A DNA stretch of 57,667 bases, filler included, from Sphacelaria rigidula (GCA_964200075.2; 3 parts of 3 records of this genome joined end to end with filler, not necessarily neighbours in it), one strand, 5' to 3'; shown: positions 161-50,800, counted from the whole stretch's first letter. Program-made: numbers and translations. The notes: generated by a model not told the origin, from the letters alone.

Positions 161-3100
161 CTTCGTGTCCGCCGGATTGGCAAGATTCTCGACATACATG
201 TAAGTCGAGAAGACCCCGACGCGGCTGCGGTTGAAGTACAGGTTCACTGCCTGAATGCAGGTAAGGGAATAGAGGGGGTGCGGCAAGGGAAAACATTTCG
301 CCTTAAGAAAGTAAGAGATCAAATAAGGGAGCAAGAAAACAAGAAGGCGGGAAGGCAGCCGCATCAAAGGTCGCATCAACAGTGCCCGGAAAAAACAACT
401 TTGCACTGGACAAAGAGGACAGTAAAACAACAGGACGAAAACGAGAGAGAAGAGTCAGCTCATCTCATTCAGTACGTGCGTTCCAGAATAATTATCTTAC
501 TTACCTGAACATCACCGTCGAACAACTGCCCTTCCTTGTTCCCAAGAGTCAGCCACTCAGCATCCCAGTGATGCTGAGTGCGCACGCGGAAATCAAGCGC
601 CGTCGCCGCCTGCCTGGGCGCTTGAGGCCCTGCCGCCCCCGTCGACTCGCTCAGAGACCCCTTTCCACCGCCAACCCCACCCCCGGCCCCGCCTATCCCT
701 TGGTGAACGACTCGCCATTTGTCCGTCGTTGCCGGGTACAAGCTGGACGGGTTGCCGCGACGTGCCCATGGTGTCATCGGCCGCACTAACGAAACCGTCC
801 ACTTCAGTGACGACTCGTGAGCGATTTGCTGGCCAAGATTGATCTCGAATCGCGAGGATCTGGGTCCGATGGGCGTGCACCCACGCAGCTCCAGTCTCGG
901 TCGAGAAAGCACCCCCAACATCGTGGCGGCTTGGCCGCCCGATGGGATGAGAGCTTGCGGTCCTTGCGCGATTGCTCGCTGCGTCACCACCGATAACTTT
1001 GCCTTGTCTGTTGTGGTCGGTGTACCTACTCCGCCGCTTCCACCGTTTGCCCGTCTTGTTCGGTCAATCGCGGTGGAATGGTTTCCGACGGGAAGCACGC
1101 CTGCGTCGCCTGAGCGTGCAGAAATCTGTACCAAAGATGATGCCGGCCTGACAATGACGGTTCAATGCAAAGATTCGAGATTGAAACGCAAATGTACACG
1201 GAGAACAACAACGACATACCAGAGCGCGCATTGAAAACTACGCGCCTTGAAAGAACGGTCACGAAACAACGGAAGACCGAACAGCTTAGAGATAACGAGC
1301 CCTTGATGCGGTACGAGACCGCGCGTGATGTACGGCACCTTGTTGATGGCAAAACATTCAAAACTTCGCCCATCCATAAATGACGAAATATACGACAACG
1401 CTGACCGTCAGGGGAAATATAAGTCGCACCTGTTTCCGGGACGGGAGTGCTTTGACCGACTGCAATCATCGGAAAGCACGGGCACAGAGCCGTCATCTAT
1501 AGGGTCCTTAGACAGACTGTAGCTTCCCCGGGAGCCCAGCGTGCCCATCGTGTGCATTTCACAAGGACCACCAGGAACGGCAGCGCCAGGCGCCCCATCG
1601 ACACCCAAACCCGTCCTCGGCACACCGGTCCGCGGGTCCATGATCGTGTAGTCGAACACAGCGGGGAGCTCTACGTGCACAGCCACCATCTGTGAGGGAT
1701 AGCCAGGGTGGTCAATGTCAGTGACTTCGACGAAAAGACTGGCACCCTGGTTGTACGCCGTGTGGTCGAGAGGTCCCATACCCGCGGCAGCCATGGCAGC
1801 TGCTCGCCCCATCGCGCCACGGTCGCCGAACCGGATAAGCTCGCCTGTACCACTGTCGTATCCTCCGAAATACTCCTCTTGCTCAACATTTTCAGGTGCT
1901 GCAGTCAAACGCACGGTGATCTCTCGCTTTCCATTTACAGACACGATTCCCCGACAGGGCTCTGCGAAAGCCGTTACTTCCTGCACTACCAGCGCGGGCC
2001 GCCGCCGGCCGCCCCCTTCATCCTCCGGCGCCGCAACGCGCACGCCTCTCGCCAGCCGGAGTCGACCGCCCCCGGCGAGGCTGAAGCGGACGGGACCCTG
2101 AGTCCCCGGAAAGCTCTGAACGGAAAATGTAGCGGGACCTTCCTGGTCGAACGGGCCCGTTCCGTCGCCATCACCTCCGCCACCGCCTCCACCACTCTCC
2201 GGCGGCCTTAGAGTAATGGCGATCGACGTGCAAGAGAGTCCGAACGTCGGTCCCGGAATAAGCGACCCCAATACGGCCACAGACTCCACCAAAACCCCTT
2301 CTCCTTGCCCCACGATATCATCAGCCCCATCGGTCGAGCGTCCTTCTAGCGCAATCTCCACTCGCACGAAGCCCAAAAGGCGGGCGTCCGGGTCCCAGTC
2401 GTGAAAACCGCCACCAATTCTTGATCCACCGCCTGACATCGCTGCCGACGTCACTATCGAGGAGGCATATGCTGCATCGTCGTCCAATGACGATGACGCC
2501 GGGAGAAGCTCCGGCGGAAGTCGAGCCCCCGGTAGCGCGATGCACTCTACCTGCACGTCCACCATATCCCCGGGAAGCAGGGAAACACTTGGCGACGGGC
2601 GACCGTCAGGGTGCGCCAAGGCGTACACGCCGTTCGAGGAGTCCTGGTGATGCATGGACGCTCCGAGCGACAGCACTGTAGCGACTTCCACCGCCGGCTC
2701 TACACACATCTTCACCGCAACCGGCTCGTCCGACACGTTCTGCACCTGAAACGAACCGGTGCAGCGCCCAGTGGCGCCCCTCCGCGACGGTATCGCCAAG
2801 GGAGCCAGTCTCACAGCACCTCCCGAGGGTGTTCCGAACGAGCCAAAACTGCCCACCATTGAAGCCGATGGTTTTCCCAGCTCTGAATCAACAGAGCTCG
2901 GTTTGCGCCCAGGGGGGGGAACAGGGCCGGGATAGCTCGGAGTGCCCAGGTAACTTGGAGTGCCCGGGCTCACGAGGCGGAGTAGCATGGGGCTCGGAGG
3001 CGGTTCGTCCAGGCCGAGAATGCTCACCAGATGCGTAACCACGCGAGCGTGAACTGCGACGGCAACCTCCTCCGCCCGGGGGTCGGCCAGGTTGGCCAGT

Positions 3101-6100
3101 CGGATGGTGAACGTTTGTGCGCCCGCCCAGCTTTGTCGCCGTTGGGAGAGACGCAGCTGAAACGTCAGTGACACCTCGGTCCTCGCCGGTAACCACGTTA
3201 CAATGTTGTGATCCGGAAACGCCTTTCTCCCCGAAGCATCATCCCCAAGACGTGATCGGACACCACACGCCAACGCGCAGCTGGGACGAGTCGATGACGA
3301 CCCGCCAGCTCGGCGGTAGGAGCATCCGCCACCAGCGACAGCGCTACTGCCTCCGCTACTCCCACCACCGCCGACGTTAACGTGCCCCCCTGTCTTTCGG
3401 CGTGGGACGCTGTCGCTGGCGCCGCTGCTGACCGCCGCCGCCGACTGTATTTCGGCCGGTCCGTTCAAGGCGGTGCCGTCATCGACAAGCTCTAGCTCCG
3501 GAGACAGGCTTGTCATTCCAACGGGAACGGGTGTATCAGACAGATTTCGCAGCGTAAGCTTAAAGCGGCGACGGCCACGTTTGTAAACTGTGTGGCCGAC
3601 GTTACCAAGGTCGATAATAGAGGGACCCAACACGCCAAACCTCGGTCGGCAGTAGGTGCCGACGGCCCTGACAAGCTTGACCAGCGGCGGCGTCCCCGAA
3701 TCTGCTGCAACGCGAGGCCATGCAGTCGTGTCCGCGAAGTCTATATTTTCCGGCACTTCCAGCACGTCCAGTATATCCACCTCTTCGTGCATGCCCCCTT
3801 GTCGCGCCAACGAGCGGAGAGTGTCGTCGTCTACCTGAGCCAAAGCAACGAAGCCATCGAACGGTACAGCTCGGCCGTCTTCCACCGCGGATATCGGCAG
3901 CGGGCCCGTCACCGCGCCCGGCCGAATGCCAAGTCGCAGCCTCCGCGTGGCATTAGGCGCGAGAGTGAAAACGGCACCGCACTTTGTCATCCTCAGCTCC
4001 GGATTCCATGAATTTGGTCCTTTCGGCTCAGACAGCGGTGACGCTGGCGATATCTCCTGCTCTGCTTCCTCCGCATCAACAGACCATGTCTGCATCCTGC
4101 CCCCACCAAACGACTTGCTCCGTCGATGGCCGCCGGCGCTACCGTGTCCCCAACCTCTTGTACCGTGCTCCGGTGAGAACGAAACAGCAAAACCATCGAC
4201 AAGGTGGGCAGCATGGGTCTTACGCCGTCGCGCGACCGGCGCGATGAACAGGGGAAGATTCGAGTAAGGAGCAAGAACCACTGATCGGTTCAGGCGGTTC
4301 GTCACTCGAAATTCCATCTCACCATCGGCAGTGATGGCGGCAGGATCGTCTTCAAAATCATCCCCAGCTTCCTCGTCCCCGTGAGTGATATCATCAGCCA
4401 CGCTTAAGCGGCGCAGCACGGTCACCGGGGACAGTTCGAACGGCCCAACAAGCCTATCGATGCCTTGTCGATCTCGGTAGTCGTCGTCTTCGTCTCCATA
4501 TTCCTTCTCCGCGTGTATGTTGTCCCGAACGCTGACCACCTCCTCCTCGACCACCTCCCCCTCTGACTCCGACTCTTCACCATCCCCGTCGAGAGCCAGG
4601 CTACCTTCATCGAGCCGCGAATCCAAAACTGGTGCCAGAAGGCGAAAACGGGAGAGGGAGGGACGACCGCCAACGTCAATGACGTTGTCGTCGTTACCGA
4701 TGGTGGCACGCGTTTCGGGAGAAGCGCCGGAGCTCCCGCCAGCGGACGGCCGCATTTGATCGGGGGCGATGGATTCGGAAGCGGAAGGCAGCGGAGTCAC
4801 GGGCACCATAATCGGAAAGTGCAGGGTCTCCAGCGACGCAAGCGACTGCCCGTGTACATCAGTAAGCTGTTCAGCCTTCTCCGTCACCTCAACAGCTGAA
4901 GCCGAATCCGCCGAAAACCGTCTTATCAAAGCAGCAGTTGGCACTTCCATCGCCGCTGCTGCAGCTGCCGTTGTTGCCCCACCATGAAGCGGGAGAGCAA
5001 ACAGCGAAATAGTGCCGTTATCCACAAACAGCCGAATTTTGTGGTAAAAGCACACTCGCCCACAGAATGCTGGCGCGGCTGACGAAGAAGACAACGCCAC
5101 AGTAGCTTCCCTACCGACATCGGTTGACGAATCAACCGATGAAGGGGGAGAGCTGAGATTCTCCACAGCCAGCTCACTTTGGAACACTCCTTGGTAATCA
5201 TGGAAAAGAACACAGAACCGGATGCGGCGGCGGCCAGATGGTGGCAAGGTGCCGGTTTCGGTGTCAAGCAACACGACCTCGGCAGACCCAGTCGGTAGGG
5301 TGTGCAGCCGCGCCAGAGCGCTGGCTATGTCCAAACATCTCACGCTTCCTCGAGGCCGGCCGTTGTCTTTGATTTCTCCTCCGACAGCCATCCTTTGTGT
5401 TCCTCCCGCTATCCGATATTTCAGAGGCAGAGCTTTGGTGACGTTCTCCAGATTCACCGAACCGTACACTACTCGTCGCCGCTCGTCTTCGGCATCTCTG
5501 CGCTCGCTCCTGCCCGCCGCAGCCACGACGAAAGGGTTGCACCCGATATCATCAGGACTTGTCAGTGCGAGAACGCCACCGCCACTAGTATCCGTATCGA
5601 TGCTGCTGCTGCTGCTGCTGCTGCCGCCGCCACCGCCGCTGATGCAATGCGGCGGCGGCAGGAGGGTGAATGGCGAGTCCTGACCCCTGAGGCGCAAGAT
5701 ACTGACTCCAACAGTACCAACGAACTTGATGGTCAGCTCAAACAGCCGGTCCGTCGTCTGTCGAGACGCCACTGATTCGACCACAGGGTCGAGGACGGGG
5801 CTTCCAGCACACGATGGCAGCGCTGCTGCTCCTGCGCCCCCGTTTGCTGCGGCCACTGGTGCTGCGGCTGACCCTGATTCCTCGCCTACGCTTTTGTCAT
5901 GGAGAACTGTCCCCCCGAGCGTAGCTTCGTCACCCCCACCGTCGGCGGGGGCAGTTTTGCCTTCATTGTCGACTACGGGAGGTACATCAGCAAGAGCGCG
6001 GCTGTATCCCAAAATTCGCACGCCACCGACCAGTTCTCGGCAATCCCTGGACACGAGACGAACGGGCGAACGAAACCAACATCCAACGACGAAGTGGGTT

Positions 6101-9100
6101 AGCTTGGGTGGCGACCAGGAGTGGGTGATGGCCAACCACATGCACAAGATGCCGAAATTGTGCGCGAGGTTGGATAATGGTGGTGAATGATCCTTCTACC
6201 CGGCTAGGAATGCGTGTCCTCCAGTCTGCAATCCCACGTAGTTTGGCTCTGATATTTCACGTGACGCTTCTCCTGTATCAACATCCTCCCGTGCACGTTA
6301 TTTGACATCACATACACTGGCCACTCAGAACATGAAGGAATGTACATCTTCGACAAGGAAGACAACGAGCACGCACGTCAACATCTCTCGAAACACCACT
6401 ACACAGCGATTACAATTGCACACACCATATGCACAACACAAGAGTACGAAACGCGAATCATGCGATACTCGGCGAGGCGAGAAAAACATTGTTTACCCTG
6501 TGACGTACGCCTCGCTCGGCAGCACAGGACGCAGTCCAATGTAGAGCGTGGTTTCCGACTGAGGCAGCAGAGGCAAGTCCGCCACGAGCGGCCGGTGAGT
6601 CGTGGTCCCTGCCGCCGCAGCCGCCGCTGAGGAGGTGGGCGTCGGAATATCCGCGTACACAAAGCACTGTTTTCTCAAATTCGGGATACAAGAGAGAAAC
6701 AGCTTGTGGTCCGTCACGTTGCGAACACGCAGCCGCCGTACGATATCCGTCTCAGGAGCAGCGGTGGCGGCGCTCACATCATTTTTAACCGACCCGTTCT
6801 CCGCTTCAAAACGCGGTGGCATATAACAGTGACCAATTTGGAGTTCCGCCGGCTTGAACGTCATGTCCGGATCCAGGTCGGGGAAATACAAGTACATTCG
6901 AGGTTTCACGGTGACGGACACTGTCACTTTGGCCTGTATACATTTGTGTTTCGCACAGGAAGAACACCGAGCGGCATAATATCCATGTTACAAGCGGCGG
7001 TAGACCCGTGTTGCAAGGAGGGACAGAGCGATGGAGGGACGGAGGGGGGCGGGGGAATGGCCGGGTTTGGTACGGCAATGTCAGTGTTTTCCCTCCTTCA
7101 AAATGCGTGTATGCCTCAAGCTGGCGGTACAGTACATGCTAATGCTTTACACAGTATACGAACGCCACCCACGAGATATGTTGGAATGGTCCTCGTTGAA
7201 TACCTCACGCTGGAATGCTTATAAAATGCGTATGGTCGATCACATCCAGTACCCGCTTTGGGTCGAAACAACATGCCCCACCGGTACCACCGAAATATGC
7301 CCTGTATCCTAACTGCAAAATACATTAGGTTGGTGGGTGTCATCCCCCCCCCCCCCCTTCTTTTTGCTTGTATGTTGACTGAGTGCTCGCCTGATCCTGT
7401 TTGTTGCTGAGATTACGCACGGCCAAATCGTGCATCCAACGACCGACGGACGTCGCGTGAAACGCAAAAGAGACGTCCACCGAGCCCCCCGACTGCAGAG
7501 TGCCCGTTGGCTGGTTGGTTAGCAAAAGGCTATTCGTCGCCGGTTTTCCATTCACCATGACAACGAACCTAAAGAGAACATGCAATAGCGACGGCGCCGA
7601 AAACCATGGCCATGTCGAGGACAGGACAGGGCGGGGTGAGAGGGTGGAGTGTGCAAGATGATTGCCCAATCGTCTCGTCGACAAACACTCCAGGGCACTG
7701 GGAATTTGGTATGAAGGAAAATAGGGGATGCCGGCATTAGTTTGCAGTGCTGCCATGTGCACGGCACTTATGGCAGGCACTTAGTTGGGGAAAAGCAAAA
7801 AAGTTTGTCTTGTTTTTGCAACAACGGCTCCCTAGCACCGTTTTACGACAGCGACAACACACGAGACGTCGACAGGGGACGCTGATACAAGCGACAGCGT
7901 ACGCCTGAAAATATACTCAGGAGAGTTAAGGGGTCAAGGCATTCGAGGCGGGCAGCATCAAGAGCGTGTCTTTCGTGCACCCCATCAAGATTACCCCTCG
8001 CATCACCAAGGATTCATCGTGCGGGGGAAACAACATATTCTACAACTGCTCACGCGGGGATAAAATCTTCCATATACCCCTCCTCGAATAGCATAAAAAT
8101 TCGAGCTTTCATGGAAGTGCGGTGGTCGTGAGTAATACGCAACAACGTGAGTGTGAAATTGAATGCGATGACCCCCCCTACCCCAATCTCACCCGGTCAG
8201 CCTGCGGAGGTACAAACACAAAAAAACTCACTTCACAGGTGCCGGGCCAGTCGACAGGTTGTGCACCGTGAAGCTCGACTGGGTGTGGGAATCCAGGTCG
8301 ACGGTACCAAGTTCGACTTTCTTCGGGACGCTGAGGTAGCTCTCCGGCAGAGCTTCCAACACAACAGGGACGAGAACGCGCTGGCGCGCTCCACCGCCTC
8401 CCCCTCCGCCGCTTCCCCCATCGCCGCCGCTGCGTCCACTCCCGATCTCACCGATGCAACTGCCGTTGCTGCTGCCGCCGCCGCCGCCACAGGTTGCACC
8501 GTTTCCATCTTCGTGGTGGGTGTGGGGTCGGTCAATGACGGTGACCGCAACAGCGCCTACGCACCTGAGGCAGGGGAGAGTGGCGCGGAATGGGGAGAGG
8601 GGCCTTGACAACATATAACAGCGGAAAATGTCGCCATCTGCATAGCAACAACGGGGACGGGAACACTCACAAGGATATCTGCTGTGCATGGCTCCCTTGG
8701 CAAGAACATGAATACCAAGTAAAGGTGCACCATGACGTAAAAAAATTGGCACGAACTCCTCAACACAAGACACCAGCCCGATTGAGGTCGAGCGCATCCA
8801 ACCGTTGCGTACGTCGTTGAGTTTCGAGCGCTTCAAAAGCGGACAATAAAATACGGGGAAGTGTAGCTTTTACTAGAGTGAAAGGGAGCGTGTCATCTTC
8901 TGGTCGACATCAACCACCTGAAATGGCCTATCAACAACGCTTCCCTCCTCCTTTTTCCCCGCCCCGGCACATGGCGCTCCATCTCGAAAGGAATGCATGA
9001 TCAATGGTCAAACGACTGAGGTGATCATCAAAGAAGTACACCCCTGCGTCCCTGCACACACAAAAACCGTCGGAAGCACCTCTTACCAACGGCCAACCGG

Positions 9101-25400: not shown

Positions 25401-26675
25401 TGCGTACATACGGTACATACAATTTTTGTACCAATGATGGTGTTTGTTGACATATTGTTGTGTATTTTCGCAACGAACAAGGCCCTTGGTGCACAGATCC
25501 AGCAGGGTTCCAATGCACCCCACTACCTACCCTGTCACCTACAGCACAAGAATTCGCCGTGCACTCGACTTGTTGTGCGACACCGTCAGCTACAGAACAG
25601 GAATTATGGGCCTCGCAATCCACTTTTTTATTTGTGTGTGTTTGACACCGTTGCACACCTTTGTTTTTCAGCTGGTATGAAAGACTTTTACAAGGAGGGT
25701 GGAAGGTCACAGATACATTTTACGAGGTACTTGCTGTTTATTTTTGCAGAAAACATGGTTCCGTCTCTCTTTTCTCACAACAGAGCTTGCATCATCGGCA
25801 GGTTGGTCTGCACTTCACAGCAATATACAATATACTCACGTCAGGCTCATTCGTTCAACTTGAAGAAATATCGGTGATGAGACTGGAGAAACGTCCGTTT
25901 TCAGGTTGGCCAAGCCTGCGTGGGAAAATAATGTGGGGGAAAAAAACACAGCTTTCTCCCCCCCCCCAACAGCCGCATTTCCGAAGGTCCATCAGAAGCG
26001 TTCAGACAACGTAAGCAACGGAAATTGCCCCAACCATGCATAAGTTGAGACTACTGATACGCGGCGGCCTTGCTACCTCTAGGAGAGGTGATGGACAAAC
26101 AGTAATACGTCCCATGAAACGTGCTTGTGCTATGCCCTCTGTGCTTCGTACAGGCTTATCTGGCACGTGAAACGCATTACGGATGTGTCCGTTGCATCGG
26201 ACCGCTGAGGACCGTATGCCATGCTGGGATGCCAAGCCGGTTTGAGCGCTCAGCTCAAATTCAAAATAGGGCCGCAATCCTAGCCGCTTCTTCACCCGCA
26301 CGGTAGTACAGTACCACAGACGGCATGAAACAACAATACAGCTAACGTTCCTTCGGGACACACCTTCGGGACACAAACGCGATTCATAACCGCAGTGGGT
26401 TGAACCCGTGTAGAGGTCGATACGACCCGAGATAACTAACTCACTGTGTAGTCCAAGATAACGTAGACCACGACAACGACGAGCATGAAGAGAAGGCCGG
26501 CCTTGACAAGCTTCTTCCGCCTGACCTCTTCAGGAGTTTCTTCCACTATCGCGTTTTCTTGCTTGTTGTCGTAGACGGTGGCAAGGTTGACAACATTCTC
26601 AGTGGCGTTCTCTGGCATTGTTGTTCCTGAAGAAGGGCGCTCGCCCCTGCTGTTGCTGATGTTGTTCATGCTCAT
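22452..26675 (-). CDS. TVP38/TMEM64 family (VTT / SNARE-associated Golgi, DedA superfamily) membrane protein
   Basis: Exons 26445-26675, 23906-24121, 23229-23422, 22452-22908, all in consistent phase. Hallmark motifs FIPGSLLTLGAGLVFG, GATIGAILAFLLGRF, LLRLSPVVPFSAFNYVMGVT and GFIPGTVAFVFIG. Confidence 0.92.
24316..24983. mobile_element. Composite foldback/MITE insertion in intron 1 of the TVP38-like gene
   Basis: Inverted arms of ~180 bp at 24413-24595 and 24692-24873, flanked by related small hairpins at 24316-24401 and 24884-24983 (ggtatctcgaactcgaggttcc..gggaacctcgagtttgagatacc). Confidence 0.7.
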
Positions 26676-29899: not shown

Positions 29900-32800
29900 T
29901 CAAGCTTTACACGGCTCGGCTTGCTGAGGCCCGAGGGGAGGGTCAGGTTGACCAAGAATTCGACACGGACGGACGGATGCAGGCAGGTGGGCAGGCAGGC
30001 AGGCGTGGGTGGGGCGACGAGTTGAGGATGATGTCAGCGACGAGAAGCAAGTTTCATCGTTGACATGCCAGACAGACGACATGCGCGCGGAAGATGCAAC
30101 GAAGGGGTCTTCCCTGCCGAAAATCCCGACACAGGGGCGAGGCAGCTTCAACTAGTCGACAAAAAACTAAACGCGACATGTGCCATTTCATTCACTGTAC
30201 TGCAACACATTTCTGGGGGGGGGGGGGGGGGGAAAGCCGTCAATGGAGGGTTTACGNNNNNNNNNNCCAACAAACAACAACAAAAAACAACGGACGGCCG
30301 CTTGTTATTAGTTACGGATCGCTGTCGGGCGGGGGGGGGGGGGGGGGGGGGGGGAGAAACGCGTCAATGCAGGTGTCATCGCTATGAGCAGAACAAATGC
30401 CCCAGTCCAACACCAACTGAAACAACCCGGACATCACCATATCACTACAAGATTACGACGATAAAAAAAAATACCAGTAGTACGTGGGCCTTTTGCTGTT
30501 GCATTGACATCGCGAACTCTCATCAAGATATAGGTAAGAGGGTATAGGTGGCGACAAACGTCCCACGAAACAGAGACGAAACCGGTGCCCAAAATACGCC
30601 CGTCTCTCGGGAAGCAGGTCGTATGTAGTCGACACTGCCTGTGCGAAATCGCGTGGGTCATGCATACCAGAAGGTTCCCGCATCCATTTGTCCAAGCTTG
30701 AAATGAGCGTGAAACTGAACGCAACACTTTTTGTAACATTACTCTCAGGCAAAAATAGCCGTAATCGTAGAGCAAAGTGTACCAACGAAACACATCCTCC
30801 CCCCGCCATTCTCTCCCCGTTCTCTCACCCCCCTTCAACGTGTGACCAACTCACCCTGTGGAAGACGTGTCTTCCCACGTGGTGCACTCCACTATACCGG
30901 GAGAGCAGAGATGTAAGGAGATGCACTCCTCCGTCTTGCTAGCGTTGCCCATCTTGTGGTAGCCCATCTCGTCGTCCATGTACGTAACAGTCCCGGCACC
31001 GTAGGTCACGTGCGACGTTTCGATGAGTCCTGCACCAGGATCCGCGTTTGCATACCGCGTCTCGGACACTTGTCCTCGAAGCACCTGAAGACAATTTTAC
31101 ACGATTTTTCCGGGCATGTCCGGGTGCGGAAAGTGAAAACGAAAAGATACAAAACAAATCAAATGAATTAAAATTACTGCGTGCACAAAGAAGAAAAAAA
31201 ATGAAAATGATTGAAGTAAAAACAAGACAGGGCAAAACAAAGGGTAAAAAGGAATCGTTCGATGTTGGGGGTAGGAGTTCCTACATCACGCGTTGCCGAA
31301 TATTACAATGTTCATGTTATGTAGGGTAGGTAGTTACCCCGAAGTGTTATTTTTTGGTTGGCATCATACCATCAACCAACCATGCCGAAATGTGTACCGA
31401 ACATCGCAGCATAGTTCGACAAGAGTGTCGAGCCCTGTTCCGAACACTCCGGTATGATGCGGAAGGGCCGACAAGAAATGTCTTTTTATTCTTCTGCAAA
31501 TGCCCGAAATTCAGCCAGTATACCCCACGGAACACAACCTCCGCATCATATAGTACTTGTTCAGCTTGGTACCGCTCCTTTTCTCTCAACTTCAAGTACC
31601 CTCCCCCCCTCCCCCCTCCCTCCTAGGGACGAGTTCTTGGTCTGAATCGATCATTCCATCGTATCCCTTGTATACGCCTGCGTACATTTCGATATTGCGG
31701 AGTGGATCAGCATCCTGTCACCACGTCAACTGTCGTCCAACACACTCACTCAAACATACCCTTGTTGCTTTTGATCTCGTCACATCCAACGACGGCCGCA
31801 TTTTTTCTCAGCGTAATGGTGTCAGTTGGACCATAACACGTTCGGGTCTCGACTGACAAGAGTGGAAAATGACCTCTCGTTGACGGTACATAAAATGAAC
31901 GGCTTTTTGTCGGGCAAAATGTATAGGCCGAGATTCCACGCCAAGTCTGAGAATCTGGCAACGTCACTTTTCAAAAGCAAAATTGTGCCAATCGGAGAAG
32001 AAATCACGTCCATTCGAAAGACTACGCATTTACTGGTTCCGGCACTGCTGCTTGAAAAACAAAATCCATCATCGGCTGTGTGTTGTATGTGTATTGTCGT
32101 CATATCTATTCTGGACGCCGGTCTACACCTTTCGGTGGGTGTGGGCGCACCAGCCGGGGTCGCACAGAAGGAAGGCCAACACAGGAGCTTTTTTCTTTTT
32201 CATTTGTTTTCAATACCCCACCTTCCTTTTGCGGTGCTAGCCTTTATTTTTTATCGCGAGAGGGGATCAGCAGTCCCTTTTCCTCGTCGACCGTTAAGTC
32301 GAGTCGGCTGCCTAGAATGTACAAAAATAATAAATAATTTTGGAAAAGATAAATTATATAAACAAATAATAAAAGGAATTTAAAAGGTATGAACAAAAAT
32401 GGAAAAAAGAGGTATCCCGTCCTCTACAGATACTTCTGGTTTCTTGAGGGCCAATTTTGACGAGATGATAGAGAGCTGATGGGCAACCAATATGAGGTAC
32501 ATAAAAACAGGGAAAACCCCCCGTTAGAATCACTATTTTTCTCACGGAACGTTCTCACTCTCCCTGTCTCGTTAAAACGTGGCCCAACGTTTCTTCACGT
32601 GGTCATCTCCCTCGACAATCCACCAGTGGCGCTGGTACGCAACTCAGTACGGTGTGATACGGCGGGGTTGTAACTGACTGCCTGTTACTATAAAAAATTG
32701 TCCTGCTTTGAATATCGAATGAGCCTGTGGTGGTTGCTCACCTTGACCCAGCAGCCCGAACCGGCGTGATCGTGGATGGGAGACATGGCGCCCGGCTTCC

Positions 32801-35800
32801 AGCAGAGCAACAACAGGTCGAAGCCGTTGGCTGCAGAGGGATGGAGGGATGGCGACCCTTCATGTCGAGCAAGCAGTGTTCGTGTGAATGGCTCACGGGA
32901 TCCATCTGCGAGGCACACGGCCACAAACAGAAATCGTGCGGATACTTCGAGTGATCAGCGAGGAAAGGGTCGGACAAATCAACGATTCGTCTGGAAGTTA
33001 CGTGGTTTTAGTGCATTTGATTCGAATCGTACCGATCAATCCCTGGGCTTTGTTTTCAGCGTTACAACCCAGGTACACGCAGACCNNNNNNNNNNGGGGA
33101 ATCAGGCCGAAGAAATCGTGGATTTGGTGATTCGAACCCGTGATGATTCGTCCTAACCGTGCAGCCTTGCAAGCAATGACGACGCTCCGCTCAGTGTATA
33201 TATAAGCATGGTCTTGTATCTCTCATTAATGAATGAAATAGTTGATGTGTATTTATTTCGGTCTAATCGTAGACGAACGAGCTGACATTTCGTGTATACA
33301 TGAGGGATGGGCGTTTGATATTTGATTGGGGCAGATGGGCTACTGGGACGGGTTTTTGATTGTTTTGAGGGCCTTTGGCCACGAGCAGACAATGTGGTCG
33401 TAGTCCCTATATCGGGATGACTTGTCTTGAGGTGAGTACGGCACAAGCGCAAGGCCGAGATAATCGATAAGAGACGCGAATGGCGAGTGCCGGACTAGGG
33501 CGTTCGGCTTTGCGTCAGACGCCATCGTAGTGAACACAAACGCGCGTGTGATCAATCTCCACCAACTTCATTTCAACAACACCGGACCAAAGCATCAACG
33601 ACCCGGGCGTGGAAAAAACGGCAAGAACAAGGCGTCGGCACGCAGTGCTGGATGCACACCGTTGCAAGCTTTATGTGTGTGTTTGCTGTTTCGCCTTGCG
33701 TAAGAATAACGCGCTGTCCGCTGCTGCCACACTCCTGCTGGTGCTGTGTTGGGGGCCTGGAACGTAGTTCTGTGTTGTGTTCGGTGTACTATACTGTACC
33801 ATCTATGAAACTGTATTGCGTTGGTACGCGCTACGAGATTCGACCGTAGGAACACTGGATAGGTTTTAGACTACTATACTCGTCGAGCGATTCCCAAGCG
33901 AAATGGAGCGCTCTGATTGGTGATTACCAAGCGAATGTATCCCGCTCCAAATGCCGCAAGTGTCTATTTTGACACTTGGGGCCATTATTACAGGCTTATT
34001 TTTTATACCCTTGATTCACTTGTGTTCGTCACAAACGGATGACAAATTGACCAAAAATAAAGCCCCATTGAGGGCACTTTCCGCATGACGGTGAAAACAT
34101 GGCAAGGCGGGTATTATTGCCATCCCGGAATTACGCACGACGTACACCTGATTGTGCGATCTCAAGACACTTTTAACGATAGCTCCCTTAAAAAAAGGGG
34201 CTGGTTTGGGGAGGCAAAGTCTACACGGGAGTCGAAATGAAAAAAGCCGAGCACAACGAGCAGCTAGGAATTCCCACGCTCGGGTTCGTTTTCCGCGATG
34301 TCGCCCATATGAGGCTCTTCACGCAGCCTGAAACAAAACATCAGGCGTTGTACGACAATTTTCTTCGCAACAGTTTTGGGCTAGTTTTGAGGGGGTGTAC
34401 TCATGATCATGCTTGCCTTAGAAGAACATCGACATCGCATCCCTACAAAGCCGGGACGGAGCACGCTCTTTTTGGGGGGGTGGAGGGGGGGAGGGACTAT
34501 CGTAGAAAGACCCCAAGACATGAAATCCAGCACACCACTTCCACTACTATTCTCGGTGCACGCAGTCTGACTTTTGGCTGAAATAAATAATAACACATTC
34601 GCGTGTAATTCATAACAGCCCTTGGAAGATGAATCTGGAAGATGAATCTCCAGCTTCACGAAAGTGGTCGCTTTTCTCGCGCGCGCAAAAAAACGCTGCC
34701 CAAAAGAGTCTCGTTATCCAAGATCTTTCATGCCAACAAGAAGTGGTCTCGTTATCCGATGCTGCCGTGACCTTATTATAATACAAGCGATTCACAACGT
34801 ACACATCACAAGAAGCAAAGGAGGACGCACAGCGGTGCGTGCGGGCACCAGCGCGGGAATACGTTTTTTTTCGTCGTGTACGTGTGCTCACCTGTTGGGC
34901 GCTTGAGAGCGGGGGCCCACGTCTCAAACTTTGGTGTTTGCAGCCGCCTGATGAAGCGCGCCGCGACGAAAATTGGAGCATGCGCGAGAGAGTAGAAGAG
35001 AGCGGAGGGCTGGTGATCAAACGCAAAAACAAATCCCGTTGACGCAGTTGAGTTTTGAAGTTGTGGTACGTTTTTGGGACGTACTTTATTTCGACGAACG
35101 GGTATACTTCATGTTTCAGGAGAGACTTGATAATTCATGACAACGTCTAATTTATCCAGTTTGTCTGCTGGGCCATTGGTGTCCCGTGACTCCGTGACAC
35201 TACTCGTCGTTACACTGCGGTGTAGCTCTCGACATCATGCAACGGCGGCGAATACCGTGCGCGAGCTCGCTGTCCCGTTTTTATTTTTGTGGCCCATTGT
35301 CCAATGCGCCGCGCGGCCCTCGACAGAGGTTATATGTCAAGTTGAACATAGGTATGGAATGCCGGCCCCATTTTTGGGGAACGGAAACCGCAACACGGAT
35401 GCTTCTAGTGGTGAGAGTCTGCATGAGACTACAGTTGAATTTGAACCTTCATATTGCACCGCGTTTGGGAGCGAGCTGCAAGGTTGAGGGAGGGGAAAGA
35501 GAAGAGTCGGTGCGACTGGCTCCTGCGATCTGTCCACCACTACTACCGTAGTGTGTACTGCGCGATGGGTGGTACACTAGGGTTTCTGTTTCATGCTTTA
35601 CTATTATACTGCATTTACCTTGTCACCCCAACACTTGCAAAGCGCTGTGGGTCACCTACACCCCTTACGGGCTCGCGACTCCTCACGTCACCACAGGGCC
35701 GACGTGGTAAAAACAGATGATATTCACCGTTCGGACAGACTATACACAAAAGACGACCCAACCATTTTCCTTGGAGCAGTCGAAAACAAGATAATGTAGT

Positions 35801-37239
35801 GTTTTCAACAATGCTCTTGTCTGCATGGTATAACCCCGCGCCATTGGCTTCATGGTGTTAGCTCGCGGTCAACCCAACCAGCGCTGTTGACTACTGTACT
35901 GCTTGTGCTGTCGAGCTGGTGTTGTCAGCTGGGATAGTCTGAACGCCGCGAAAATACCGACCCAAAGCGGATAAACATGGACGGGTACGTTCGGGCCGGG
36001 CAGGGTGAACCAAACACCAACTGAAACCGCCAACGACAAATATTTCCGGAAAATTGTCCGATTGTCACACTTTATTAGGGGTGAATCACTCTGAGGATGT
36101 CAGCTTATCGCCCGCACCCAACTTACCCCGCCTGCCTGCACTGCAGGACTGTACTCTGCGCAACAAACTTGTGATTTTGTCTAGTCCAAAACTAGGGAGC
36201 CTGCATAGGAAATGTCAACACAAGCACCCAAAGCTCCGATGACCCTGTATTTCACAAGTTGCGTCATTTCAAGCAAGTTCTGCACGAAAGTCTATGGGCG
36301 GGGGCACGGCAGGCGGATGGAAGCAGGGCGGGGCGCACAACAACACGTTTAAAAAAAGACATGATGGGAAGAGAGAAACGAGTATCCTTGTGTGCAGGGG
36401 ATATGTTGTTTTCGATGGTTGTAATGAGAAAGTTGTAGTACGCTCTGTAGATACTTCTGTAGTTGTAGTGGGAGGGTGCCCGTGTGCCCTTTAATAAATT
36501 CAAGCTAGAGTTCAAAGCGAAATCTCTTGCCACCCGTACTACATCGAGGCCGGGTCGGGTGTCCAAGTCAACACTGACTGACTATAAGCGGCTCGAACGT
36601 TAACTAATTTCGAAAGCAGATGGCAGATGCAGACCGCCCTCCAACCGGAACAATCTACAACATTCACAGACAACGAAGGTAAACTCATGACAACTTTCAA
36701 CTTTTCCACAACATGATTTCCCGAACACCCAAGGTTGTGGCAGCAACTCACCGTAGCAGACTCTGAACCCTAAACCTCCTCCTGAAAGGCATGGCATTGT
36801 ATTGCCACAGCTCATTCTTGACTTCCTCCATGAAGTCTCCGAGTCGCAAATCGCCGGACTCCATGCCTAGCATACCCCCAATGGGGGGTTCCGCGGCTGC
36901 CGTGTTGGGCTGGTCGAGTTTAGCCGCATCTGCCTCATACATGCCAGTCCCAGCACCCCCATGACGAGTCCTCACATCGGTGACAACATCACCACCAAAG
37001 CTAGACGAACTAGCCGCCGCCGTCACCGCCGCATGGCTTGGCGCTACATGCGCGGCCTTACCACTAGCCTTCTCGGGCACCGCAGATAGATCATGATGCG
37101 GTAAGAATGCACGGTGTTGATGCTGGCGCTCGTAGGCATGAGATGATAGCCTGGCAGCTGTCGGCGCCGCTGGACGAGGACCGCGCGGCCGGATAATTTG
37201 GCGCAATGTAAGTCTTGCGACAGACGCAGGCGCCATCAT
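29900..37239 (-). CDS. Cysteine dioxygenase (thiol dioxygenase, cupin) family protein with N-terminal extension
   Basis: Exons 36752-37239, 34892-34947, 32742-32905, 30855-31084 and a tentative last exon 29900-30113, all in consistent phase. CDO motifs: FTRTLL (canonical YTRNLV), LLLLCWKPGAMSPIHDHAGSGCWVKVLRG, YMDDEMGYHKMGN, ISLHLCSPG (canonical VSLHLYSPP). The three His metal ligands are present. Confidence 0.88.
32095..32300 (-). mobile_element. SINE family A, 5'-truncated copy (CDO intron)
   Basis: atctattctggacgccggtctacacctttcgg..caccagccggggtcgcacagaaggaagg..tttatcgcgag..cctcgtcgacc matches 20551-20760. Confidence 0.75.
33003..33155. repeat. Dispersed repeat with homologues at 38513-38570 and 48895-48950 (inverted)
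   Basis: tggttttagtg..caatccctgggctttgttttcag is the reverse complement of 38513-38570. aatcaggccgaagaaatcgtggatttggtgattcgaacc is the reverse complement of 48895-48950. Confidence 0.65.
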
Positions 37240-38412
37240 GTTTCAAGTGCTGTACAGTGCTCCACCGTTGTGCTGGGGCCGGTTGGGGAATGCTGGCTGG
37301 AGGGTGTGTATGGGAGGAGGCGGATGGGAGATGGGAAGCAAGATGATATGATGCACCGTGTATTTTTTGTTTCTTTTTTGGGATGGCAAAATTCAATACT
37401 TGCAGTTTTAAGTAATGCGAAGAGGCGTTTTTCAAGGGCTCGTCATCATGGAGCCGTTATGCCACGATGATGATGCTACAACCGGCGGTTGGTGGGGGCG
37501 GGGATTATTTTCTGCTGTGCGTGCGATAGACACTATACTGCACAAAGAGCACACTGAACGCTTTGACCGTCTGGGTATATCATCTGGAAACTGTATTCGT
37601 CCGCCTCTGTATTCGTCCGTCTCGGGTTCGACAGTAGTAGTAGTAATAGTACAGTTGTTACATGCATCGAAAAAAAGACAACAAATGCAACTCATTTTTT
37701 TAAATAATGTGACGTATATATTTTTCATTCTATATCTTACTTTTTCAAGGTTTTCACGTGCGGGGAAGCAAAGCTGTCACGTGATGACCCTCTTTGGAAT
37801 GAGCATGGGTCTTTACGTGACTCGGACTGACACGCTCTGGAATGAGTGGCGAGCACAAGGCGAAATGATCATGAGAGCTCTCATCACATGATCAACATTG
37901 ATTCAAGCTTTGGGAACACACAACAAAGCACAAAAATTCTCACATGACTCCGTAGTTTCGGAATTGTTCTGAAACCCTGCGCCCTCCGACGTTCACCCGA
38001 GACCGAGAGAGTATTTAATTCTTTACCTGGTACACTACTTGTTTATAGACGCGAGATTCACGGTATAGTTCAGCAGTAATGTACAGATAAATATATCGGG
38101 AACCTTGAGTTTGATGTACTGTACCCCTAATAATAATGGAACAGAAGTTAACCTTATTGTTCATTTTGACGGATCCGAGGGAACCACAAGTAGGATACTA
38201 CTGTGATTATTGTACGAATACGAACACTTCTTGAGGGGAGTCAATACATTTGTGTTGCCTGCTGGTGAGTTTCGCAACATTCTACATGATATTATCGTGT
38301 ACCTAGCAGGGAGGCTTTTTTTTTCGCGGGGGGGGGGGCGTTTTCCATCGAACAAAGGCAACATTTTGCGACGCTCCTGGTGTTCATAATATGTTCTTCG
38401 AACGATATAACT

Positions 38413-41800: not shown

Positions 41801-44800
41801 CACTTTGATACCATATTTCGACGTGACGTGTGCTCAAGTGTGCAAACATCTCCAAGTTTGCCGGAGGTATTGGCGTCTCGATTCACCACATCCGGGCCAC
41901 GGACTCGTACGTAGCCGGATCTAACGGGTCTTCCAACGGGCTCGTGCCCATGCTCAGGGTGTTCAACGACACCGCTCGCTACGTAGACCAGGCAAGCTTG
42001 AAGAAGAAGATCGTGGATGAAAAGTGGAAATTGTGGTACTTTTGGACCTGAACTGGTTCCGTTTGTTAGTGTGGTCGTGTATTGATTTTTAGTCATCTAT
42101 TTAATTGATTGACTGGTTAATTGATCACCTGATCGACCGGTTCATTGTTGAGTTGATTCGATCAATTTGTGGGTTGTATTGTAGAAACTTACTTCATTTC
42201 TCTGAAGATGATTTACTTCAAATCCATCATGATGATGTTATTTTATCTCTCGTTCTTCTTCCTATCGATAGTAATGCTACGATAGACAGGGGTGGGAGTA
42301 TTTTGAGCCGTTTTCTGCACGGGAGCCCCCTTGAATCGCCCTTGAAAGCAGCCAACAGTTGTTCGAACGCGCTTGCTCCCGATAAAAAACGCTCGTTCAC
42401 ATTGTTTTCCAACCCTTTTACCCGAATACAAGCGCACCGCGAATGTTCCAGGTCGCTTGACGCATCCAGGAGCACATCTTTTCGTGGAATCGAATACCCC
42501 CCCCCCCCCCTAGCGTAGCATATAATGCCTTCGTTTGGCGTTTGCCACATCCTTGGCACGAGCCTGGAATTTTTGTTGTCTTAGAGGACAAACCCGTCGT
42601 TTCCCGGGTGCCTACCATCCCTTCCATCCCCACCATCACTCCTCTAGCCCCTTCCCTTCCATCTACTGACCGTTCGTTTACTGTGAGCTCACGATGAAAC
42701 TAGGACTTGTAATTGGTTGAAGCAATATTTCGAAAAACGAATGAGAAACTGAAGGTACACAGCGTATGTCGACGAAAATGAGGGAGCTGAAGAAAAAGGA
42801 CAGCGGGTTTTGCAGAATGTATTCTGATGAGAAATCGTTGGATTTTTGTTCAATTTGCGGTTGCAGGGTGGAGGTAAACGAAAGGGGTCCTTCGCCATGT
42901 ACTTGGAGCCGTGGCACGCTGACATCTTCTCCTTCCTCGACCTGAGGTAAGTGCTGCAGGCGCTCGCCTTGCATGAATGTCGTCTTGAGTGCATGTTTCA
43001 CGTGTGCTGTCCTTCCTGCCTGCGGATCGCGTCGTGATGGAATCTTGCATGAAAATACAGAATAGAGAATCGGCGAACGGTCCTCGAGAAACGCTTGTGG
43101 TATGTTAACCCCCCTGTAGCGTTGTGTATGTCTTGGAGATGGATCGCCCTTTCCGCGGTTGTGGGCTGTGTATTCTTCCCCCCCATCAGCAGGAACCGTG
43201 CTCGGAACGGTGCTCCGTCTCGACAGGGATGCGTGTTGATGGTCAAATGACTAAGGGAAGCAATAAATGAGTATGCCCCCCCTCCCCACCCCCCTCATCC
43301 ATAAATGGAAGGAACGTAGTAAACCCCGAATGCTGGAGTTATCTCTGTTGTAGTAGGGACGGTGCTGCATCTCGGAAGTGATGCTGGTCGAACGACTGAA
43401 GCAAGCGCCCCACCCCCATCTATCGTCGGTGTAGTGAACACGCGTACCTGCCGGTTGACTGACGGCCATAACATGCTTCTGTCATCCTCCAGGAAGAACC
43501 ACGGGAACGAGATGGAGCGTGCCCGCGATCTGTTTTACGCGCTCTGGATCCCCGATCTGTTCATGAAGCGAGTGGAGACAAGTGAGCCGAGCCCTCTAAT
43601 ATCTTGGCGTTTTGTTGAGATATGATCTGGTTTGGTCTACTTTTTAACCCCCCTCCTTCCTCGGGACGACCCTGTGGCCGCGAGCGATCAATTGACCTAT
43701 CTCCCTGTGACCGCACGTACATGTCTGACATGGAACATTCGTCGTCCTTCCCATACCGCGCTTCTCCCGTTATTCTTGGTTGGATGATCGACGTAGACGG
43801 CGACTGGAGCTTGTTCTGCCCCAACGAAGCACCAGGCCTACCTGACGTGTTCGGAGATGAATTCGAGGCGTTATACACGGAATATGAGGCCAAGGGCAGG
43901 GCCCGCCGAAGCATCAAGGCTCGCCTCCTGTGGACGGCCATCATGGACGCGCAGGTGTTCGCTATACTCACCAGCAGCTTCTTTTTTTGGCATTTCTTTG
44001 TGTCGATTTTATGTCCGGTCATGTTCCATGTATATATATATATATTACGGTCACATGTCCGTCGTCCACTCTTCATTTCGTGTGTGCCTTGTCATCCCAT
44101 CTATTCTGCACTCCAGTCTACACATTTTGGTACATGTGGGCGCATCAACCGGAGACTGACAGGAAGAAGGTCAACACAGGATTACTTCATTTCTTCTCTT
44201 TTTATTTCGAATCTTGTGTAACCAAGACAAAACTAGTCGGTCTCCAGCATTGGGCATGACTGACGTGAGATGAACTCCCAAATCGTGTGACTTCCAGGAA
44301 TCCGAATCCACATCCTCCCATGTCCACTTAGACGTTTATCAGATTCAGTGTGTACACCATCTGCCGGCACTCGAGAGGGTGGAATCGTGGTGGCTTTGGG
44401 TGACTCGTGCTTCCTCACAACATACTGTTTTTTTTTGTGGTTGGTTTTCATTTTTTCATTTGTCCGTTCTCGTCTGTTTGATTTCGTCTTGTTTGACACA
44501 TACGCGTAATTGCGCGTGGGCTGATGGACGGGAAAAACGAAACAATTTTCAGGTGGAGACAGGAACGCCGTACATGCTCTTCAAGGATGCGTGCAACAGC
44601 AAGAGCAACCAGAAGAATCTCGGTACCATCAAATCCTCCAACCTGTGCACAGAGATCATCGAGTACACGGACCCTGACGAGGTGCGTGTAACCAGTGTTT
44701 CTTGTTGTGTTGTCCCTCCTATTCTGAACGCCAGTCTACACCGTTCGGTATATGTTGGCGCACCAGCCGGGGTCACACAGTAGGAAGGTCAACACAGAAG

Positions 44801-47800: not shown

Positions 47801-50800
47801 ACAATCCGCAAGACGAAAATGAAAAGTGTGTACCGGGAAAAGATGAGTTGATTTTTTGGTTGAGACCACGGACTCGGGTTGAGGAAGGGAGGGGGCTGAG
47901 TGTGACGAAGGTAGCAATAGTTACTCTGGTTTCTGTAGCTTCCAATGTTTCTTGAGGAGTGATGTGTCAACTTCACCAAGCGTGTACAATAGCACAGGTC
48001 GATATAGTTGGAGCATTGACCTTTCTTACTGTATACTCGTATCCGATTGGTCGTCTGGTTGTGTCCAGCACCGGCGCTGCCGTGCGCGCGCGTGTATGCG
48101 ACGTTTCATGGACAGGCGAAAAATGATGGAGGTCAACGACCTACCTTGCCTCTGCGCTCCCCGCGTTTATTCCCCAATGTGTTGATCGTCTTGTTTCTTG
48201 CGTGTGCAGCAAAAAATCGCCCAGCACGGCCTGCGCAACTCTCTGCTCCTGGCGCCCATGCCCACGGCCTCCACCGCCCAGATCCTGGGCAACAACGAAA
48301 GCGTCGAGCCTTTCACAAGGTGAGAAGAATTGTAAATGTATCCAGGTATATTTCATCACCGAGCGTGTTGGCAGCGCCACAAGTGCGTGTCCAATCCATG
48401 TGCTTGATGGGTGTACGCGATTCGTCAGGCATGATTTTATATATGACGTATCTTCGCCCACTTGGGAAAAACTTTCACAGTTTCAACGCGGAAAGTGTTG
48501 CAGAAAACCGGGGAAGCTGTCTGCAATGTCCGAAATTTCGTCCAGAAGTTATTCGATTTATTTGCAAGGCAGTCATGTTCCACCCGCCTCAGTAGGACCT
48601 ATGTCCCACCTTCCCGACCATCTCCCGCGGGTATCGTTATTCTCCATTCCCACGTATGTTATTATCTATTCCTTCCCACCGCATGAATCTTGTTCCAGTA
48701 ACATGTACAATCGAAGAGTGCTGGCGGGGGAATTCGCGGTGGTCAACAAGCACCTGTTGAGGGATCTGACGCAGAGGGGGCTGTGGACGGCGGGGGTGCG
48801 AAATCAGATCATCGCTGACCAAGGCTCGGTGCAACGGGTAGACATCCCCCAGGACCTGAAGGTACAGTAGTACTGTATGTTTGACTTGAATTTCGGGTGA
48901 ACCATCGCTGGTTCGAATAACCAAGTCTACGATTTCTGAGGCCTGGTTGCTCGAAAAACATGTAAGAACGTTGACCGCCAGTCCAAAAACTATCCACGCA
49001 AATTTTGTGCCAGTCCTTGCACTCGCCTCGGGGCTGCGCAGCTGGGGTGTAAGACTGGAAACAGCCCAGGGAGTGATGGGTACGATACGAATCATGTTAC
49101 ACTAGAAGCAGGTAATTTTATGTAGACCAATCGTTTCTAGTCCCATCCTTGGTATGATGGATTGTGACCACGAAGGCGAAGTGCCGCGCTGTGACGATGA
49201 AGGTTTTCATCTCGTCCCCACATGATCGCCGCAAGGCGGTCGAGCCGAGCCTTCGGGTAATCGGCACACGAACTCGCTCGCGACCGTTNNNNNNNNNNCG
49301 TTGCGGTCGCCAGCGGGGTAAGTGTTGGGTTGGGTTTCCTCCTTCCATCAAGGAAAAAAAAAATCTCGAACCCATCGCCGAATTTGCGTGGTTGGAAAAA
49401 AACTACTCGGTTTGTGTCGGGGAGAGGTGTGTTCACACCACACTTGGTCGATTGATTCTTGGAAGAAATTGATCGGAAATATGTTATTTCGAAAACCCTG
49501 GGGGCAGGGGGTTTCAAAGCGCCCCCCACGCAAAGTGGTCATGTTCTGGAGTGTAGGCAGTCACGACATTCGAATCTTCCCGAGGCTGGCGAAAAATAGC
49601 AGATGCTCGCTATGGTGTGCAAATTTCGTATGAGCTGTGCCAACACACACACCGCTGCCCAGGATACCTGCCCACTTCATCCGTCTTGCGCGAGGGTCCT
49701 TGGTATACGGTGGTTTGGGGCCGCGAGGATCACGTTTTGCCTACGACTCTCGACTTTCATACTTGAGCAGCAAAGTGAGTTGTCGATCTTTCACTGTAAC
49801 ACCGTCCGCTGGCGAACTCGCTGTTGTCTCTGGTTCTCGCCTGGCACTGCTTCACACCCTTGATGACGACGATAGACTACACAAAAAAAAATGTACCACG
49901 TACAGTATCGACTACTGCGTCTACTGCAACAAAATATCCGATACTGTAAGTAGTACAACAGACGCTCGACTGTTGCGTCTATTGCATCGGACACTACATT
50001 CGATAATGTACCTGGTACAACAGACGCAATAGGCGATACCGTACCTAGTGCACTTTGGTTAGTGTAGTATTTTGTCCAGCGCACGTGATGCTTGTGCCGC
50101 AGTAGCAGGGATCTGTGAAGAGGGGGACAAGCGTTTTTTACTGTGACCATGCCTAGAGTCCAACGCGGATAATTCAGTTGGTCAACACGACACGACCGAT
50201 CAAACAAATCATGGAACCCATCACCCAACTTGTCAAGGGAAGCTCTACGCTCCTCCTTCTTCACCGATGGTGTTTTTCCTTCAAATTTATCGCATGCACG
50301 TGCCTTGCTCGTCGTTGGCAGGACCTGTACAAGACGGTGTGGGAGATCAAGCAGAAGGTGGTGATTGACATGGCGGCGGACCGAGGTGCTTATATCTGCC
50401 AGTCGCAATCCATGAACGTGCACATGGCCGACCCTACCCAGGTAAATTTATGTTGGGAGTAGCAGAAGTGTTGTTGGGCAACCCTGGGGAGAATCTGAGA
50501 CGCTCATGTGATTTTTTTTCTCAGCCCAAGGTGAAACTACGGGCAACGATCGCCCAAGTGTTCGCCGAAACCTCCTGGGATGATCGATGACAAAAGCAGC
50601 AAGTCATTCTGGGGCTGAACCCGCCTCGTCGGCTCTTGTCGTGTGAACCGCTGTCGAAGAGTCGAAGTAGGCATTTATTTGAACTAGGACAATTTCTCGT
50701 TCCCGCAAGAAGTGGCCAGAGCTCTCTCACTAGATGAATTTTTGTCATCCGCTTACAAGTCTCTCACCTCCCCTCCCTTTCTTGAGACGTACGTGACATC

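Follow-up and report, generated by a model that had tools for sequence, protein, structure and literature searches.

The window analysed here is a stretch of 57,667 nucleotides, filler included, from Sphacelaria rigidula (GCA_964200075.2; three parts of three records joined end to end). Its minus strand carries a gene of the cysteine dioxygenase (CDO) family with at least four coding exons, which span 37270..30855 as judged from the joints of RNA contigs and from the sequence. Joined, exons 1-4 give an open partial protein of 312 codons with no stop or frameshift. This protein has cysteine at the position of Tyr157, one of the two crosslinked residues of mammalian CDO1. The codon, residue 296 of the partial protein, is TGC at 30905..30907 on the minus strand, where the letters around it read ATC TCC TTA CAT CTC TGC TCT CCC GGT (TGC = 30907..30905).

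The gene, its transcript and its active site

An earlier reading of this DNA, hereafter the sequence-only reading, had assigned the gene to the CDO family and had claimed that both crosslink positions are cysteine, leaving no Cys-Tyr cofactor. Both claims are borne out. Exons 3 and 4 each pass the gathering score of Pfam CDO_I (PF05995) with 28.3 and 38.8 bits against 23, and each aligns to CDO1. Full-length relatives score 83-88 bits against the same family, and a profile of the clade finds CDO1 in the PDB at E 1e-25. The gathering score of PCO_ADO (PF07847), the family of N-terminal-cysteine and cysteamine dioxygenases, is not reached by the relatives (16-22 bits against 27), and the window exons have no PCO_ADO match at E up to 0.1. 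The fold of the clade was viewed in an AlphaFold2 model of the relative P0009, not of the window protein, with a mean predicted local distance difference test score of 72 and core blocks mostly above 87. Template modelling (TM) scores of this model, normalised to the target, are 0.79-0.83 for mammalian CDO1, 0.63-0.77 for bacterial CDO and 3-mercaptopropionate dioxygenase (MDO), and 0.50-0.56 for PCO/ADO, and the top 23 matches are all CDO1. Most likely this is a clade-specific CDO_I enzyme, represented here by the orthologue from a brown-alga-like stramenopile.

The three-histidine iron site of the encoded protein is complete. In exon 3, IHDHAGSGCWVK aligns to IHDHT(N/D)SHCFLK of CDO1 residues 85-96, which places the equivalents of His86 (32774..32772) and His88 (32768..32766), two iron ligands, within 32766..32774 on the minus strand and that of Cys93, the thiol partner in the mammalian Cys-Tyr crosslink, at 32751..32753 (minus strand, TGC, residue 233 of the partial protein). 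The third ligand, His140, is encoded in exon 4 by CAC at 30956..30958 (minus strand), with GYHKMGN aligned to GLHRVEN. The translation of 31084..30855 also contains ECISLHLCSPGIVECTTWEDTSSTG, and within it SLHLCSPG pairs with SLHLYSPP of CDO1 residues 153-160 (phmmer against the PDB, E 7e-6). The Ser-His-Tyr motif is thus incomplete: Ser153 and His155 are kept (TCC TTA CAT, 30911..30919, minus strand, for Ser153-Leu-His155) and Tyr157 is replaced by Cys. Since both crosslink positions are cysteine, a Cys93-Tyr157 thioether is chemically impossible in the protein predicted here.

Phe-Thr-Arg, encoded by TTC ACA CGA at 32880..32888 (minus strand), stands for Tyr58-Thr59-Arg60 according to profile-profile alignment (hhalign), motif spacing and the P0009 model, and FTRT corresponds to Tyr58-Thr59-Arg60-Asn61 of CDO1. 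Arg60 is therefore kept, and the position of Tyr58, which hydrogen-bonds to the substrate in CDO1, is Phe. The sequence-only reading had described the same residues: three histidines, Cys93 and Arg60 retained, ISLHLCSPG with TGC at 30905-30907, and Tyr58 changed to Phe. All of these were recovered. Local alignments by HMMER and Pfam, which start after FTR and are ungapped, had suggested that Arg60 is absent; this was overruled by hhalign, by the spacing and by the model.

The TGC itself was checked on contigs. Ten public runs from four studies contain the region or part of it, and four runs were compared with the window over 30000-37500. No run is on record as RNA, spliced contigs nevertheless occur in the runs X6 and X10, and contig depth was not taken as an expression measure. 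A DNA-type contig of run X1 (record 2, 30366-31455) covers the codon with no letter different from the window, and one of run X5 (record 17, 30799-31455) has the codon unchanged, its single difference lying at intronic 31087. X6 record 24 is a spliced contig of 1028 nucleotides over 30855-31081, 32739-32905 and 36751-37270, again with no letter different. Its joints skip 1657, 1986 and 1804 bases with CT..AC ends on the plus strand, which are GT..AG on the minus strand, and a short piece, 34892-34946, lies between the last two. TGC at 30905-30907 is identical across these contigs, two DNA-type and one spliced RNA, which come from three studies. X10 ("organism B") contributes an RNA-like contig of 388 nucleotides that has two joints in common with X6. 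The CDO gene is transcribed and spliced.

Run X5 represents a different haplotype. At least 18 single-contig differences are listed for it over 7.5 kb, none of them in exon 4; among those listed 17 are intronic, and position 37226 is the only exonic one. There X5 has C where the window has G, which on the minus strand changes GCG (Ala) to GGG (Gly) in codon 5, within the N-terminal extension.

All splice sites of the gene are canonical (GT..AG on the minus strand). Exon 1 (36752..37270, minus strand) has the extent covered by X6 record 24 (joint 34946/36751, cut +1). The reading frame opens at an ATG at 37239..37237 and the exon's donor junction is GTGAGT. Its product is an Arg-rich N-terminal extension followed by a conserved helix, GDLRLGDFMEEVKNELWQYNAMPFRRRFRVQSLL, that is 71-89% identical to the same helix in relatives (tblastn). 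Exon 2 (34892..34947, minus strand, 56 nucleotides) is defined by the joints 32905/34892 and 34946/36751 in X6, the first of which also occurs in X10. It has an AG acceptor and a GT donor, is supported by tblastn and encodes RLQTPKFETWAPALKRPT, the helix that precedes strand beta1. Exon 3 (32742..32905, minus strand) encodes strand beta1, on which FTR lies, then the loop insertion, strand beta2 (FDLLLLCW) and the first of the cupin motifs; its translation includes PFTRTLLARHEGSPSLHPSAANGFDLLLLCWKPGAMSPIHDHAGSGCWVK. Exon 4 (30855..31084, minus strand), the second half of the cupin barrel, translates from 31084 to 30855 as VLRGQVSETRYANADPGAGLIETSHVTYGAGTVTYMDDEMGYHKMGNASKTEECISLHLCSPGIVECTTWEDTSSTG and ends in phase 2 (ACA GG, then gtgagt). 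The limits 30855 and 32905 given in the sequence-only reading coincide with the ends of exon 4 and exon 3, respectively, as supported by RNA.

The N-terminal segment of about 125 residues (36752-37239, minus strand) is rich in Arg, Ala and Pro, and its first 36 residues, which begin MMAPASVARLTLRQIIRPRGPRPAAPTAARLSS, include no acidic residue. Similar extensions are present in relatives (for example, MNLARLSRVPARP). This composition suggests an organellar, probably mitochondrial, presequence.

The RNA contig runs about 30 nucleotides past the mapped exons at each end (29 at the exon 4 end), which implies at least one further 5' (untranslated) piece and one further 3' exon. A tblastn search of the window with the C-termini of relatives did not locate the 3' terminal exon; its sole match, at 25946..25860, was at chance level. 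This minus-strand segment is at most a candidate for the last exon, given its E of 1.5-10 and the fact that a canonical phase-2 joining to exon 4 reads a frame different from that of the similarity. The segment has a strong polypyrimidine-AG acceptor, and its open reading frame, which ends in DVSPVSSPIFLQVERMSLT and a stop, faintly resembles the SKPVKAPMFLD-type tail of the relatives.

Relatives of the gene and the age of its substitutions

Homologues were collected in two rounds. A search with exon 4 gave four proteins from 33 candidates, all with SLHLYSPG, and a search with the CDO part of the longest of the four gave 32 proteins at E ≤0.001, including annotated proteins of Scytosiphon, Pylaiella and three Ectocarpus species. 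Seventeen of the 32 were taken because they bear CDO_I or cover the core, two (P0003 and P0004) were already in the set, and 13 whose match is confined to the N-terminal helix exon (9-15% of the query) were left out. A further exon-4 search confined to proteins of near length returned no candidate, a blank that carries no weight, as relatives of that length exist. The resulting clade alignment contains 21 homologues and the window protein. Sixteen of the clade homologues extend over the Tyr157 position and every one has Tyr; the window protein alone has Cys. The sequence-only reading had asked of orthologues whether SLHLC and FTR are conserved in them: FTR is (10 of the 10 clade homologues covering that motif), but SLHLC is not.

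The same pattern holds across the wider family. A profile search of 1.84 billion representatives returned 2971 relatives at E ≤0.001, and the best 150 of the 2971 were examined. When all the proteins collected were aligned anew to the profile, 278 domain rows resulted, 230 of which have a residue in the Tyr157 column: 218 Tyr, seven Phe, two Thr, one Leu, one Arg and a single Cys, that of the window protein. The other 11 rows without Tyr all come from proteins with 2-5 tandem CDO domains. In single-domain relatives Tyr157, Arg60, His86, His88, His140 and His155 are invariant (75 of 75).

Outside the brown-algal clade, its nearest relatives in the representative library (P0036-P0060 and others) are 600-920 residues long and contain 3-5 CDO domains in tandem. 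The 11 departures from Tyr157 (F, T, L and R) are found in tandem proteins of 369-922 residues, and several of these domains have lost His ligands as well. On such alignments, tandem CDO domains appear to be diverging in function. A tblastn search for a second gene copy within the window found this copy only.

The sequence-only reading had noted a short insertion after FTRT and had taken it, with Phe58, as a sign of a pocket remodelled together with Cys157. The insertion is real. The hairpin-loop segment RHEGSPSLHPSAA (32829..32867, minus strand) holds about ten residues more than canonical CDOs, as indicated by hhalign, by motif spacing and by the P0009 model. The distance from FTR (in general [YF][TS]R) to His86 is 38 residues in the window protein, 41-44 in its relatives and 27-28 in canonical domains. 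Against canonical CDOs, hhalign pairs PFTRTLLA with RYTRNLVD and places a gap at the loop (probability 99.96%), and in the model of P0009 strand 182-190 (FTRTLLARY) is followed by a loop at 191-206 and a strand at 207-214 (FDLLLLCW).

The joint remodelling did not hold up. FTRTLLA followed by a variable loop is present in all ten clade homologues that cover the motif, and the loop varies in length and sequence within the clade. Six homologues (P0006-P0011) include both sites, and in them Phe58 and the insertion coexist with an intact Tyr157. Because both features accompany Tyr157 across the clade, they are not coordinated with Cys157; on these alignments Phe58 and the insertion are older than the change of Tyr157 to Cys and independent of it. 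One clade member, P0051, keeps Tyr58 (PYTRT) with an even longer loop. Across the family, FTR occurs 17 times and YTR 147 times among 236 domains.

Signs of decay were sought in the rate and placement of changes. In a maximum-likelihood tree of 29 rows and 144 columns the window protein falls inside a clade of 20 (support 100/98) but is not part of the Ectocarpales-like subgroup. Its end branch measures 0.58; the median over all rows is 0.38, and the other deep members of the clade range from 0.38 to 0.74. The other 17 clade members agree with one another at 23 positions of exon 4. The window protein departs from them at two, with Glu for the Ser of DSMG and Cys for Tyr157, as against 0-2 departures in comparable members and six in P0051. 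Long-standing relaxation is disfavoured by these comparisons, and function may have been lost recently. The sequence-only reading had considered that the gene might be a decaying allele, unexpressed or under relaxed constraint, beside orthologues that all have Tyr. Every orthologue found does have Tyr, but the gene is transcribed and spliced and shows no excess change at clade-invariant sites.

The closest known systems each differ from the window protein. Mammalian CDO1 (PDB 2B5H, 2IC1, 6BGF and others) shares with it the CDO_I domain, the three His ligands, Arg60, Ser153, His155 and Cys93. The window protein differs in having Cys for Tyr157, Phe for Tyr58, 10 residues inserted into the beta1-beta2 hairpin and an N-terminal extension of about 125 residues ahead of the first conserved helix. 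The brown-algal relatives P0007-P0011 (unnamed or "conserved unknown" proteins of Ectocarpus, Scytosiphon and Pylaiella) belong to the same orthologous clade and agree with it in exon content, the N-terminal helix, PFTRTLLAR, the hairpin insertion, GCWVK and ECISLHL-SPGI-ECTTW; the identity to P0009 is 59% over both exon 3 and exon 4. Unlike the window protein, they have Tyr in SLHLYSPG and a long low-complexity loop after ETRY. Engineered CDO1 variants at Tyr157 occur among the fold and sequence matches. The Y157F (PDB 4UBH/4XET series) and Y157H (PDB 5EZW) enzymes have lost the phenol and kept Cys93, as in the window protein, but these laboratory mutants carry Phe or His where the window protein carries Cys.

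In bacterial CDO and MDO the crosslink is absent through a Gly at the Cys93 position with the motif Tyr kept, and MDO has Gln at the position of Arg60. The window protein is the opposite case, with Cys93 kept and Tyr lost, and unlike MDO it retains Arg60. These bacterial enzymes (PDB 4QM9, 3USS/4TLF, 6XB9) belong naturally to the family and function with no Cys-Tyr crosslink.

Other features of the window

Very high-copy repeats lie within the CDO gene, in introns 2 and 3. At 32008-32509, 33012-33262 and 34016-34517 the summed contig depth reaches about 1.9 million, against about 65 in the flanking single-copy DNA, and hundreds of contigs, loose ends and joints fall in these three segments. 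An N gap at 33086-33095 lies within one such repeat, and the contigs that bridge it skip 17-37 bases.

An uninterrupted open reading frame of 1595 codons (1408-6195, minus strand) lies where the window is richest in G+C (0.59-0.63); a Pfam search at E up to 0.001 gave no match for it. Upstream of the CDO gene, reading-frame pieces on the plus strand at 43619-44218 and 48127-48867 match PF02867, the barrel of the ribonucleotide reductase large subunit, at profile positions 128-181 and 405-453. By these matches the pieces are parts of a multi-exon gene for that subunit on the opposite strand from the CDO gene.

Predicted consequences of cysteine at position 157

What is published on the enzyme gives Tyr157 several roles. 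According to PMC10966181, small-molecule thiol dioxygenases conserve the His and the Tyr of the Ser-His-Tyr motif, with only the Ser variable, and the motif Tyr donates a hydrogen bond to the iron-bound ligand. PMC11951088 states that the Cys-Tyr crosslink raises efficiency about 20-fold yet is not essential, and that Tyr157 also hydrogen-bonds the substrate carboxylate. In PMC6584702, CDO1 Y157F serves as a catalytically inactive control that makes no cysteine sulfinate in cells. Literature searches found Cys at this position, natural or engineered, only in a human variant list, in which Y157C is predicted to be damaging (PMC7005546). They found no study of the brown-algal CDO clade and nothing relevant on Y157H.

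On balance we favour a real, lineage-specific replacement of Tyr157 by Cys in an otherwise intact thiol dioxygenase whose activity should be low or altered. A single change of the TAC-to-TGC type in this lineage would have replaced the conserved Tyr. Without the phenol no Cys93-Tyr157 thioether cofactor could form, and the hydrogen bonding by which the Tyr holds the substrate carboxylate and the iron-bound oxygen species in place would be lost as well. Fe(II) and the thiol substrate should still be bound. Cysteine would then be oxidised far less efficiently than by the Tyr-bearing orthologues, or specificity or coupling would be altered, and the Cys157 thiol may partly substitute within a Ser-His-Cys relay.

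Several points weigh against this interpretation. The expectation of low or altered activity is extrapolated from Phe mutants of distant mammalian and bacterial enzymes rather than from Cys. The C-terminal strands are not placed on any exon, the one segment available being a candidate exon only, and a Tyr-bearing paralogue elsewhere in the genome might carry the real function. The X10 contig ends at 30929, 22 nucleotides short of the codon, which leaves Cys in a second species unsupported. Finally, the constraint tests (branch length and invariant sites) have little power, because if the Cys is recent the long terminal branch mostly reflects earlier evolution.

The leading alternative is a pseudoenzyme or a recently disabled gene, with a fixed loss of function, that is still transcribed and spliced and is either starting to decay or kept for a non-catalytic role. 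We hold this to be possible, though on the unlikely side. Replacement of Tyr157 by Phe is the change that yields inactive CDO1 in PMC6584702, and the human Y157C entry in PMC7005546 points the same way. The Cys occurs in one lineage only, in one of 17 clade sequences, and the best candidate for a last exon is out of frame with its homologous frame, which would mean a damaged C-terminus if that exon were real. Its similarity is at chance level (E 1.5-10), however, and 312 codons over four exons are free of stops and frameshifts. The other catalytic residues are all kept, a spliced transcript exists, the branch is not long and clade-invariant sites show no excess change, all of which counts against a pseudoenzyme.

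The sequence-only reading had raised a disulfide or redox switch, or a different thiol substrate. Spelled out, Cys93 and Cys157 would form a reversible disulfide or other sulfur bridge beside the iron, as a redox gate or a replacement for the cofactor, possibly with another thiol as substrate. We consider this improbable. A tyrosine ring spans about 3.8 Å from C-beta to the crosslinked carbon. From such general geometry we reason that a direct disulfide would need the backbones to be about 1.5-2.5 Å closer. Selection for Cys is unsupported, Cys being absent from all 16 clade relatives and from 229 other domains, and Phe58 and the insertion, which had been cited as signs of remodelling, predate Cys157. 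In its favour, both positions are Cys in a site that is otherwise kept, the gene is expressed with no sign of decay, and the two side chains are in covalent thioether contact in CDO1 and hence near each other (PMC11951088). The more specific versions of the proposal, in which the Cys93/Cys157 pair stands in for the Cys-Tyr cofactor as a disulfide or persulfide-type switch responding to organelle redox state, or in which a Ser-His-Cys relay oxidises a different thiol, seem to us doubtful to much the same degree. If true, this would be new second-sphere chemistry in the family and a natural experiment on the purpose of the conserved Tyr.

An artefact, be it a mistake in sequencing or assembly, a somatic variant or one private to the strain, or RNA editing, has very little to recommend it: TAC to TGC is a single transition and short N gaps lie nearby (30257-30266 and 33086-33095), but contigs of three studies have the same letters at 30905-30907, X5, another haplotype, has no listed difference in exon 4, and assembly error and RNA editing are ruled out because the RNA contig carries the same TGC as the DNA.

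The favoured reading, a genuine Tyr157-to-Cys change in an otherwise intact enzyme, concerns one residue in one lineage with a predicted effect only, and its practical value is modest. The analysis also defines a brown-algal CDO clade marked by Phe58, a hairpin insertion that varies and an N-terminus resembling a presequence. Tyr157 is regarded as conserved and mechanistically central in thiol dioxygenases, and in those of eukaryotes it is the Tyr of the Cys-Tyr cofactor; here an expressed, otherwise intact gene has Cys in its place. If the enzyme is active, it would show how far the family can reach without the phenol and would offer a natural Cys-Cys pair for study. If it is inactive, the alga would have lost or weakened the conversion of cysteine to cysteine sulfinate, the route to hypotaurine, taurine and sulfite, with a bearing on its sulfur metabolism.

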